A stretch of DNA of 64,000 nt from NCBI GenBank assembly GCA_964510065.1, contig CAZEAC010000006.1, positions 6,748 through 70,747 of the forward strand, given 5' to 3'. Numbering within the stretch: the stretch's first letter is position 1; each line of letters begins with the position of its first letter. Source of the stretch: an uncultured Bdellovibrionales bacterium. GTDB taxonomy: Bacteria; Bdellovibrionota_C; UBA2361; CAIXSY01. The position numbers and the translations under genes are program-made. This document shows positions 57,658-59,829 of this stretch, piece by piece. The notes beneath the pieces are model-generated. The model was not told the DNA's origin. It ran no database searches and saw nothing but the letters and a program-made list of their open reading frames with translations.

Positions 57658-59829
57658 GTGTCTTTATTATTTCTAAGACGGGCTTCATTCTTCCTAGCAA
57701 TAGTGGCTAGCTCTACTATTTCTCTTCTAAAAGTTGCCCGAGCAGATGATCCTGCTCCAGTTAAACCGAGCTGCTGTATTGGAATCTACAGTAACGACGA
57801 TCCCGCTCTCTTTACCGATGCAAATGGTTGGTTAAACGCACAGAAACAGTGCACGATTAAACAACTTTACTCAACTCAAGATGTGGATTTGGGATTAATG
57901 CAAGAAACTGAGGCTGACTGCGGCAAGCTCTATGTTTACCATGCAAAGCATGGCCCCGCTTGCGACTCGATCTTCACCGCTGTTAATGTCTGCGCTAAAA
58001 CATACCAAAACTGCGACATCGACTTTACTAGCGTGTCGTGCAGCTCCTTTTCTAACAAATATTTCGCAGATAACTATATTGCAAGCCTGAAGTTGTCAGA
58101 AGCTTCCTTAGGTAGGAAAATTTCGATAACAGGCGAGCAGACAAATTCTTTTAGGGGTCGGCCGGAGTGTTCTGTTACGCTTACATACGAATTGCAAGAT
58201 CGCTCATTAAGTTGTTCGGTCGGTGCCTGCGTTCCTGCTGGTACAACATGCAGTCCAGTTGATGCAATGGTAAACTGCTCTGTTCAAGGTGGCGTTGCAA
58301 ACCAAACTTGCTGCCCATTGGTTGCTCAGATGGATGGTGGACCATATGTAGATATGGCTGACGCCTTTCAATTGGGTTACTTCTCTCCGATTAACACATC
58401 ATGCCCAAACGCTGATCGTGCTTGCTATTTAAAATATGATTCAACCACTAAGCAATTCTCCCCGCCCGCTGAGAATTTTATTTACCCTGCCGAGGCATGC
58501 CCTGGCACGCTTGAGGGGCTTTCTGCCGCAACTCCATACTCCTTAGTTGATAAATGCAGCGGTGCAAAGTGCGAATTTAAATGTCGTGAAGGATGGGAAC
58601 TAAGCTCCGCCGGATACCCTTTCGATCATCCCGGCTTGACTTGCGTACCTAAATACCGATGCCTAGGGTTGTTACCCGAGGAAGCTACTTTAAATCATAT
58701 GAGACTTTGTGCCGGATATGGACAGAAGCTAACTTACGATCAAAATACGGCACTTGTCGAACCGTATCAGTGCCCGTCCAATCGTAGCCATTGCAGCGTC
58801 ATCTGTGATGCTGGCTATCACAAAGAGGGCCCAACGTGCGTATTGGATTATGCTTGTTCAGGTGCACTTCCAGCTTATTCTCAACTTTGCGCAGATTCAC
58901 ACGGCATATCCGATGCGGTTGGCCTCAGATCCCCCGAAAAGAGAACTGGAGTTGCTGCTTGTTCGGATCAGAAAAAATGTGAATACCGATGTCTCAGTGA
59001 AGGAGGATATATACCTACCGCCGATGGATTGAGCTGTTTTCAACCAAAATGTACCGGCACGGCTCCGGCTCATGCCTTACTGTGCTCAGACTCACAAGAT
59101 ATAAACGACGATAAGATGTTGACTGCTAATGTGCCCATAAGCTTAGTGGGCACCTGTACTGATCAGAAGAAGTGCGAATATGAGTGCATGATCGGTAACA
59201 TCTTAAGCCCCGACGGTAAAAGCTGTGTGCCCGCTGTCTGTACGGGGCTCATTCCCTCCTACAGCGCTCTTTGCCTGAATTCTAACGGCACTCGTGATGA
59301 CGTAACGCTACCTGCAAACACTCCTTGGTTACTGACAAATTCTTGCAGTGACGAGCGTAAATGTGAGCGTACTTGCCTGCCTGGTTACATTCCAACCGCT
59401 GACGGTCAAAATTGTTTCAAGCCGAAATGCTTAGGACCGGTACCATCTAGAGCAGTGCTCTGCTCCGGAGATGATCTACAACTATCGGGAGATACCCAGC
59501 GAGCACTTAAAGGAAGCTGCACAGACTCATACAAATGTGAGTACGTTTGCAATAGCAGCTCGTACCTCGAATACGTTACAAATAGCTGTCAACCTCGTCC
59601 CAAAACAAGCGCGAATTGTGTCTTTGATCCAAATTCAGGAACCGAAACTTGTTACGGAGTTCCTGGCAACACCGGCAGTAGTGGTAATCGATGCCTATTC
59701 GGTTGCTACGATCGTACGACGTCAGACGGATGCATGACAGACGACACTCAGTGCGCATGCCCGCGCCGATGCTGGTACCTGTCGGATCCAAAATCTTCAG
59801 ATTACAGCTGTAAGCCGGGTTGTACCTAG
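57658..59829 (+). CDS. Large secreted cysteine-rich protein with about five tandem ~65-aa six-cysteine modules (sushi/CCP-like spacing)
   Basis: Signal peptide, then modules of the form C-x-G-x2-P-x4-L-C ... C-(S/T)-D-x2-K-C-E-(Y/R)-x-C ... C-x3-C repeated across roughly 58470-59580, with an additional Cys-rich C-terminus. Confidence 0.55.
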   Translation: MSLLFLRRASFFLAIVASSTISLLKVARADDPAPVKPSCCIGIYSNDDPALFTDANGWLNAQKQCTIKQLYSTQDVDLGLMQETEADCGKLYVYHAKHGPACDSIFTAVNVCAKTYQNCDIDFTSVSCSSFSNKYFADNYIASLKLSEASLGRKISITGEQTNSFRGRPECSVTLTYELQDRSLSCSVGACVPAGTTCSPVDAMVNCSVQGGVANQTCCPLVAQMDGGPYVDMADAFQLGYFSPINTSCPNADRACYLKYDSTTKQFSPPAENFIYPAEACPGTLEGLSAATPYSLVDKCSGAKCEFKCREGWELSSAGYPFDHPGLTCVPKYRCLGLLPEEATLNHMRLCAGYGQKLTYDQNTALVEPYQCPSNRSHCSVICDAGYHKEGPTCVLDYACSGALPAYSQLCADSHGISDAVGLRSPEKRTGVAACSDQKKCEYRCLSEGGYIPTADGLSCFQPKCTGTAPAHALLCSDSQDINDDKMLTANVPISLVGTCTDQKKCEYECMIGNILSPDGKSCVPAVCTGLIPSYSALCLNSNGTRDDVTLPANTPWLLTNSCSDERKCERTCLPGYIPTADGQNCFKPKCLGPVPSRAVLCSGDDLQLSGDTQRALKGSCTDSYKCEYVCNSSSYLEYVTNSCQPRPKTSANCVFDPNSGTETCYGVPGNTGSSGNRCLFGCYDRTTSDGCMTDDTQCACPRRCWYLSDPKSSDYSCKPGCT

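Follow-up and report, generated by a model that had tools for sequence, protein, structure and literature searches.

What does a gene for a cysteine-rich repeat protein do beside a cluster of type III secretion system (T3SS) genes, and is its product an effector or surface factor made of modules akin to eukaryotic sushi or epidermal growth factor (EGF)-like domains, as an original prediction had proposed? We addressed this question for the gene at 57658..59829 (+) in a 64,000-nucleotide stretch of DNA, here called the window, from an uncultured Bdellovibrionales bacterium. The gene encodes a protein of 723 amino acids (aa) that belongs to a large prokaryotic family of six-cysteine repeats lacking a Pfam or NCBIfam model. 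What is new here is a domain family, sizeable and uncatalogued, whose small fold is confident and apparently undescribed; in this protein it is joined to a head domain that is nearly unique. We consider it probable that the protein is Sec-exported, disulfide-stabilised and either surface-located or secreted, with a role in binding or adhesion for which the modules would provide a stalk; the story of a eukaryote-like effector beside a T3SS is unsupported for it.

A protein of tandem six-cysteine modules

The open reading frame (ORF) at 57658..59829 starts with GTG and, in the ORF list, ends with a stop codon at 59827-59829; a Shine-Dalgarno-like AAGG (57647..57650, +) can be read in the sequence 7 nt 5' of the start. 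Cysteine is counted 62 times in the precursor, making up 8.6% of its residues. By inspection, residues 1-29 (57658..57744, +) form a predicted Sec signal peptide, MSLLFLRR / ASFFLAIVASSTISLL / KVARA|DD, with a basic n-region containing two arginines, a hydrophobic core of 16 residues and then an A-R-A|DD cleavage site. No hydrophobic segment other than residues 9-27 (Kyte-Doolittle 1.78) occurs in the protein, and the A-x-A site is aligned and conserved in the only orthologue known, a protein designated P0073. Consistent with the secretion that had been proposed, we infer from these features a cleavable Sec-type signal peptide, removal of which would leave a predicted mature protein of 694 aa that is acidic, with a pI of ~4.9.

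Behind the signal peptide lie an N-terminal domain (residues 30-275, 17 cysteines; 57745..58482, +), which is conserved in P0073 and has a predicted structural core, a run of six modules, and a C-terminal tail (residues 654-723, 10 cysteines; 59617..59826, +) that was distinguished by cysteine count and hydropathy. The modules were scored with an independent hidden Markov model, built from 200 modules of other proteins with this protein and P0073 left out. Module 0 (about residues 276-334; 58483..58659, +) is truncated, with five cysteines and no Cys1, and matches profile positions 9-48 at 35.0 bits. Five complete modules of 63-65 aa with six cysteines each follow: module 1 (residues 335-399; 58660..58854, +; 28.3 bits), the most divergent, with a 5-aa insertion after Cys1; module 2 (residues 400-464; 58855..59049, +; 33.4 bits); modules 3 (residues 465-527; 59050..59238, +; 53.1 bits) and 4 (residues 528-590; 59239..59427, +; 49.1 bits), both inside the structural model described below; and module 5 (residues 591-653; 59428..59616, +; 56.5 bits). 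The six matches thus score 28-56 bits, against a maximum of 5.4 bits in 50 shuffles of the protein, and the module periodicity is far beyond chance. The predicted array of about five six-cysteine modules of ~65 aa was therefore borne out and gained a truncated sixth member, and both of the module strings quoted with that prediction are found in the protein.

From residue 335 onwards the spacing C-x10-C-x(19-24)-C-x5-C-x3-C-x(10-14)-C is repeated five times, and alignment of the five full modules shows the six cysteines and the proline after Cys1 to be invariant. Modules 2-5 keep the core K-C-E-Y-x-C-x-x-G-[YF] apart from minor changes (module 4 reads CERTC, and module 5 lacks the Gly-Tyr); in module 1 the core is degenerate and reads HCSVIC. 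The asparagine usual for the family at position 8 is missing from the modules of this protein. The C-x-C that had been ascribed to the modules occurs in none of them; the actual motif is C-x3-C-x(2-4)-G-Y, and the sole C-x-C of the protein is found in the tail, at residues 699-701. Identity between modules is only 25-51% for amino acids and 56-68% for DNA, and no repeat in the DNA was reported by Tandem Repeats Finder; the repeats are therefore old, as had been suggested from their low DNA identity. A recent tandem duplication of DNA was rejected on the blank result of Tandem Repeats Finder. The C-terminal tail has no Pfam match even at E<=10 and is not conserved in P0073, and no further module genes were found elsewhere in the 64-kb window.

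Given a 66-row alignment of tandem module pairs, AlphaFold2 folded modules 3-4 (residues 465-590) with a mean predicted local distance difference test score (pLDDT) of 95.6 and a predicted template modelling score of 0.77, into a structure containing short beta strands only. The last cysteine of one module is separated from the next module by only 4-5 residues. Since the two-module model is confident and the linkers are this short, a semi-rigid stalk is supported, which would consist of six tandem small all-beta modules (one truncated, five complete) with three disulfides each.

A prokaryotic module family

The module had been thought rare in bacteria, which proved wrong: it is widespread among uncultured archaea and bacteria. 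When a profile of ten modules (A1), the own modules of this protein included, was searched against 1.84 billion representative proteins, each representing a cluster at 50% identity, it matched 806 proteins at E<=1e-3, of which 355 also reached E<=1e-10 and 72 reached E<=1e-30, so that the module is present in at least 806 representative clusters of prokaryotic proteins. The 723-aa protein ranks fourth in this search (E 4.8e-93, with a query profile that held its own modules). A word-index search with the module profile gave four short matches, and the same type of search with the full-length query found only the protein itself and P0002, an 862-aa Aenigmarchaeota protein (MBI2173043.1) that combines Big_1/Invasin_D3 immunoglobulin (Ig) domains with six-cysteine modules. 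An identical protein, encoded on a contig of 89,657 nt, is present as a singleton cluster in an NCBI-derived collection, and neither the gene nor relatives were found among GTDB species genomes. The few named sources of family members are Candidatus Omnitrophota, Candidatus Peribacteria of the candidate phyla radiation (CPR) and Candidatus Aenigmarchaeota of the DPANN archaea. No Pfam or NCBIfam model exists for the six-cysteine module, and the 723-aa protein itself has no Pfam family at E<=0.1 and no NCBIfam match. Nor did we find a paper describing the module in the literature that links sushi-like or cysteine-rich repeats to CPR, DPANN or Omnitrophota.

The 166 family sequences that were fetched hold 645 module instances, 2-17 per protein. 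The consensus of 498 full-length modules is CTGtiPsNAtLCsGDdtGLtadTprTLVssCTa.tKCEYtCnsGY..sGg.CVp, which corresponds to the pattern C-T-G-x-[IV]-P-x-N-[AS]-x-L-C-x-G-D-[DN]-x-G-L-x(3)-T-x-x-T-L-V-x-x-C-T-x(2-3)-K-C-E-Y-x-C-x-x-G-[YF]-x(3)-G-x-x-C. All six cysteines are present in 387 of these 498 modules, Cys2 and Cys3 are both missing from 96, and the remaining 15 show other patterns, four of them without Cys1, Cys2 and Cys3; in no module (0/498) is Cys2 lost without Cys3, or Cys3 without Cys2. Because these two residues are always lost together, a Cys2-Cys3 disulfide in the module has good, though indirect, support. In the four-cysteine variant, which accounts for about one fifth of the modules (96/498), Cys2 most often gives way to Tyr, Phe or Trp and Cys3 to Asn or Asp, and a Trp often follows the G-Y motif. 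To judge from these replacements, the variant looks like a swap of an aromatic residue for a disulfide in the module core.

Features of export and cysteine richness recur across the family. Among 135 complete-looking (Met-starting) family proteins, 118 begin, by a heuristic criterion, with a hydrophobic segment for export or anchoring, and the median cysteine content is 5.7%. Family proteins are often very long, and the domains that accompany the module in relatives are of kinds typical for surface proteins; they include Big_1/Invasin_D3, Big_7, Lcl_C, DUF1554, HYDIN/ASH-type Ig domains and a myxococcal cysteine repeat. Defining the family would improve the annotation of thousands of "hypothetical" surface proteins and would remove spurious "Sushi domain" calls.

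The N-terminal domain and the role of the protein

The orthologue P0073, a protein of 541 aa from the Logan assembly of run ERR12350055, is 37% identical to the 723-aa protein over 542 aa (E 6e-91). It shares the signal peptide, the N-terminal domain and the truncated first module, followed by more modules, and it differs in having four profile matches, including the truncated module, and a glycine-rich C-terminus. Over the N-terminal domain the two proteins are 39% identical (308 aa, E 7e-60), with nearly all cysteines conserved and with the blocks DCGKL, KHG, CDI, GR-I-ITGEQ-NSF and TYEL strictly conserved. An AlphaFold2 model of this domain from the two sequences has a pLDDT of 54.6 overall and reaches 70-85 only for residues 35-192, which are predicted to form an alternating beta/alpha core. 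The contig that encodes P0073 (L081, 1-19685) has a guanine-plus-cytosine (GC) content of 40.6%, against 51% for the window. On it the orthologue is flanked by genes for M20 and C92 peptidases and for a reprolysin-like metalloprotease; the locus also contains methyltransferase genes, consists mostly of ORFs without Pfam matches, and has the orthologue as the sole gene in common with the window.

The N-terminal domain raises the question of whether the protein might be a periplasmic or secreted enzyme, in which this alpha/beta domain would be catalytic and the modules would only stabilise or tether it. Such a role would fit the flavodoxin/Rossmann-like beta/alpha sandwich predicted for the core, the blocks that stay strictly conserved at 39% overall identity, and the peptidase genes beside P0073. 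However, neither sequence nor fold assigns the domain to a catalytic family, no recognisable catalytic motif was seen, and the model from two sequences is of low confidence. On balance we regard an enzyme as possible but unlikely.

We favour instead a binding or adhesion protein whose stalk of modules presents the N-terminal domain as a head. The sequence suggests that the precursor would be exported by Sec and the signal peptide then cleaved, and the cysteine content and the behaviour of the family suggest that oxidative folding would follow outside the cytoplasm, in the periplasm, on the surface or in the medium, with up to 31 disulfide bonds formed. The modules would most likely serve as a spacer that withstands proteases and shear and from which the N-terminal domain, a cysteine-containing head of ~245 aa known from one other sequence, would project, and the 70-aa tail with its 10 cysteines may form a knot at the other end. 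The architecture, together with the domains that accompany the module elsewhere, suggests that the head so presented would serve binding or adhesion, or possibly catalysis. The final location would be the periplasm, the cell surface or the medium, as no anchoring signal was found. From export to final location, the support for these steps falls.

Several points weigh against this interpretation. The N-terminal domain has no Pfam, NCBIfam or PDB sequence match from which a function could be read. A word-index profile search found no further relatives of it, and neither did searches of JGI metagenome contigs with protein patterns and with a degenerate DNA pattern for GR-I-ITGEQ-NSF. Its model retrieved from Foldseek only generic flavodoxin/Rossmann-like folds, with a best E of 1.8e-3, which is uninformative. 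No lipobox, beta-barrel, C-terminal sorting motif or membrane anchor was found in the 723-aa protein, which could equally stay periplasmic or be released. The term "adhesin" would draw on architecture and on the domains accompanying the module in other proteins, and no annotated homologue assigns a function. Finally, the envelope type that we infer for the host derives from the presence of T3SS genes alone.

Relation to the type III secretion genes

The gene had been described as lying next to a T3SS operon, and the T3SS genes are indeed there, on the minus strand. Closest to it is a gene for a TPR protein resembling class II chaperones (60478-60906, -), identified by family search, followed by a 96-aa ORF without a match (60910-61200, -), an ORF of 218 aa that corresponds only to the N-terminal half of SctU/FlhB (61197-61853, -; Pfam Bac_export_2 positions 2-218 of 335), and a 199-aa membrane ORF in the position of SctT that has no Pfam or NCBIfam match (61860-62459, -). 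Genes for SctS (62456-62737, -), SctR (62695-63273, -) and a SctQ/FliN-like protein (63279-63989, -), all found by family search, complete the cluster. The gene at 57658..59829 (+) is convergent with these minus-strand genes across a gap of 650 nt, and because of this orientation and gap it is not in the T3SS operon; the neighbourhood that had been described was correct, but the gene stands on the opposite strand and outside that operon. Around the single orthologue P0073, no T3SS genes are present within 10 kb on either side (L081).

These observations bear on the proposal that the 723-aa protein is an effector of the T3SS or a host-interaction factor translocated by it, and that its gene lies beside the T3SS because the protein is T3SS cargo. 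Proximity speaks for the proposal, as only 650 nt separate the gene from the chaperone-like TPR gene and the SctU/T/S/R/Q-like genes behind it, and the flanking ORFs are without known function. T3SS substrates, however, are cysteine-poor, are exported unfolded from the cytoplasm, carry no Sec signals and pass through a needle channel ~2 nm wide. A predicted cleavable Sec-type signal peptide and 62 cysteines, or 31 potential disulfides, are incompatible with such a needle, and the effector reading was therefore rejected. The convergent position of the gene on the opposite strand argues in the same direction, as does the locus of P0073, with peptidase and methyltransferase genes and no T3SS within 10 kb, and proteins of the module family are plentiful in such lineages as CPR and DPANN, which to our knowledge have no T3SS. 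Of the two roles that had been put forward, a surface or secreted binding role remains plausible, whereas that of an effector is very improbable.

The T3SS genes may have some unusual features of their own. No NPTH autocleavage motif or C-terminal switch domain for the SctU/FlhB-like gene (61197-61853, -) was present in any minus-strand frame of 59830-61900, so that the SctU export gate would be unusual in being without a substrate-switch domain, or that domain would be encoded elsewhere. The T3SS core also appears highly divergent, going by the hydrophobic 199-aa ORF at 61860-62459 that matches no family.

The surrounding window

The immediate surroundings of the gene bear on whether it is a real gene at all. 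It could be argued that the ORF is spurious or decaying, in a low-GC island beside a truncated SPFH gene, since its GC content of 47.6% is slightly below the 51% of the window, the ORF upstream encodes only a truncated piece of Band_7, and most neighbouring ORFs are without matches. Against this, the frame is intact over 723 codons with all cysteine columns conserved, P0073 is a full-length orthologue (E 6e-91), the family profile matches strongly and the module fold is highly confident. A spurious or decaying ORF was rejected on the orthologue, the profile matches and the AlphaFold2 fold, and we give it practically no credence.

The upstream ORF (56993-57640, -) covers only the C-terminal half of SPFH/Band_7 (profile positions 99-176 of 176), with a weak match to HflC, and on this sequence evidence it is probably the remnant of a truncated gene. 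Because only 17 nt separate its longest-ORF start from the GTG of the 57658..59829 gene, its true start is probably further inside. Beyond it are an ORF of 504 aa (55394-56908, -) with two chance-level Pfam matches only at E<=10, and ORFs of 235 aa (54266-54973, +) and 350 aa (52851-53903, -) with no Pfam match at E<=10. Together with the 57658..59829 gene, the ORFs of 52851-56908 make up a patch of slightly low GC content (46.8-49.7%) with lineage-specific genes beside the T3SS cluster.

Elsewhere in the window, a gene for a HerA_C-type ATPase (748 bits to PF05872; PADLOC mad8 1e-17) shares an overlap with the end of a 587-aa ORF that lies upstream and has no matches; this pair (40090-43399, -) may be a module of two genes, either defence-like or a DNA translocase. 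At 27691-31596 (-), with a lower GC content of ~48%, a dynamin-like/LeoA-like GTPase gene (30007-31596) adjoins a 592-aa ORF without matches (27691-29469), and the two resemble a pair of bacterial dynamin-like genes or a candidate system of Leo type. No tRNA was found in the 64-kb window, and no Rfam family at gathering score. Those window proteins that were found in a collection of 15 billion proteins are all singletons at 90% identity, and the source genome is without a close sequenced relative; a MccB-like gene of the window has only matches of 59-68%, scattered over many phyla.

Comparison with known systems

Of the known systems with which the modules can be compared, the eukaryotic ones named in the original prediction, Sushi domains or complement control protein (CCP) repeats (PF00084) and EGF-like domains, come first. 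Sushi/CCP domains and the module are both extracellular, beta-rich, disulfide-bonded units of ~60 aa that follow one another head to tail across short linkers. Both start with C-x(2-4)-P-x(1-4)-N-[GA], and both have a central hairpin of the form (E)-Y-x-C-x-x-G-[YF]-x(3-5)-G-x(2-5)-C. The module differs in that its cysteines number six, where Sushi/CCP domains have four, with a probable bond between Cys2 and Cys3, and in lacking the invariant Trp between the third and fourth cysteines and the C-terminal "G-x-W...P-x-C" strand. With EGF-like domains (EGF, cEGF, MSP1 EGF) it shares the number of six cysteines and the C-terminal C-x-x-G-[YF]-x(n)-C beta-hairpin, but it is 63-65 aa long against 30-40 aa and has C-x3-C in place of the EGF C-x-C.

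It might be supposed from these similarities that the modules are true domains of the Sushi/CCP or EGF type that were taken over from a eukaryote, with which the protein would mimic complement-control or matrix proteins of a host. The sequence comparisons lend this some support: sub-threshold Pfam Sushi matches occur in 54 of 66 family module pairs (best E 1.4e-6), the family profile finds CCP domains of factor H and factor H-related (FHR) proteins among PDB sequences at E 0.003-0.03, and some multi-module relatives exceed the Sushi whole-protein cut-off of 20.7 bits (P0008 with 42.3 and P0020 with 33.8 bits). The last scores, however, are sums of sub-threshold stretches that cover profile positions of about 17-52 of 56, and the 723-aa protein itself matches no Pfam family; its module pair 465-590 reaches 18 bits with cEGF (E 0.0026, cut-off 26.6 bits) and E 0.11 with CPL1-like, both under cut-off. 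Profile alignment with hhalign, for which the references were verified against PDB, gave probabilities of 9-28% over 16-18 columns in the (K)CEY-x-C-x-x-GY region for seven CCPs of human factor H, and of 5-24% over 7-11 columns in the C-x-x-GY...C region for eight EGF domains (factor IX, factor X, Notch1 and EGF).

Structural comparison gave a similar picture. The confidently folded two-module model matched nothing in PDB at E<=1e-3 by Foldseek. Its top matches, all weak, were EGF-like, namely Pfs25, MSP1-19, the calcium-binding EGF domains of fibrillin and the second EGF domains of factors IX and X (E 0.08-0.6, template modelling score 0.12-0.32, with a score below 0.3 for the best E of 0.08), and CCP structures appeared in the list only at E ~3. 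The modules contain no conserved Trp column, and the whole 723-aa protein has four Trp, none of them at the CCP-equivalent position. EGF domains of 30-40 aa are described by the patterns C-x-C-x(2)-[GP]-[FYW]-x(4,8)-C or C-x-C-x(5)-G-x(2)-C, and neither of these PROSITE-type patterns matches the 723-aa protein. The canonical disulfides are 1-3 and 2-4 among the four cysteines of CCP, and 1-3, 2-4 and 5-6 in EGF. The inferred Cys2-Cys3 pairing conflicts with the EGF map, and neither register in which the module can be mapped onto CCP retains the CCP pairs. The 4-5 residues after the last cysteine and the absence of C-x-C argue likewise against membership of either family, and the breadth and diversity of the module family in prokaryotes argue against a recent eukaryotic origin. 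We consider domains of eukaryotic descent a distinctly improbable explanation.

The resemblance to Sushi and EGF domains that had been noticed is real but narrow, and is confined to the C-E-Y-x-C-x-x-G-Y hairpin motif. The module resembles these domains in manner, being a small extracellular unit, rich in beta structure and pinned by disulfides, that is strung up like a bead, and membership of either family is not demonstrable. A broader proposal would combine several of the ideas considered here: the module would be a structurally new prokaryotic disulfide domain, without a counterpart among solved structures, that is a sister or precursor of CCP repeats, through ancient ancestry of the EY-x-C-x-x-GY hairpin, and the private head, known from two genomes, would be a contact or adhesion factor in an interaction with host or prey that the protein shares with the neighbouring T3SS. 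We think this combination rather unlikely as a whole.

Counterparts of the binding or adhesion protein that we favour are also found among the large exported cysteine-rich proteins of CPR, DPANN and Omnitrophota. The module builds cysteine-rich surface proteins in these poorly understood, often symbiotic or ultra-small lineages, in which cell-cell attachment is thought to be central, and a definition of the family would help in understanding the rigid, oxidation-dependent appendages of their cells. In a published account of Peribacteria genomes, large exported cysteine-rich proteins are described and a role in attachment is proposed for them (PMC4736985); the module proteins may be of a comparable kind. 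The bacterium that encodes the 723-aa protein differs from the CPR, DPANN and Omnitrophota relatives in having T3SS genes, a class A penicillin-binding protein and a larger metabolic repertoire. The relatives pair the module with Ig-like/invasin, Lcl_C, DUF1554 and other domains, whereas the 723-aa protein has a private N-terminal domain instead. Modules of the same family occur in P0002, in P0008 from Omnitrophota (MGE0268492.1) and in P0004 from Peribacteria (MDR3169516.1), with 37-51% identity per module and the same cysteine columns, and the export signals and arrays of 2-17 modules in the family proteins of these lineages correspond to the predicted export and tandem layout of the 723-aa protein.

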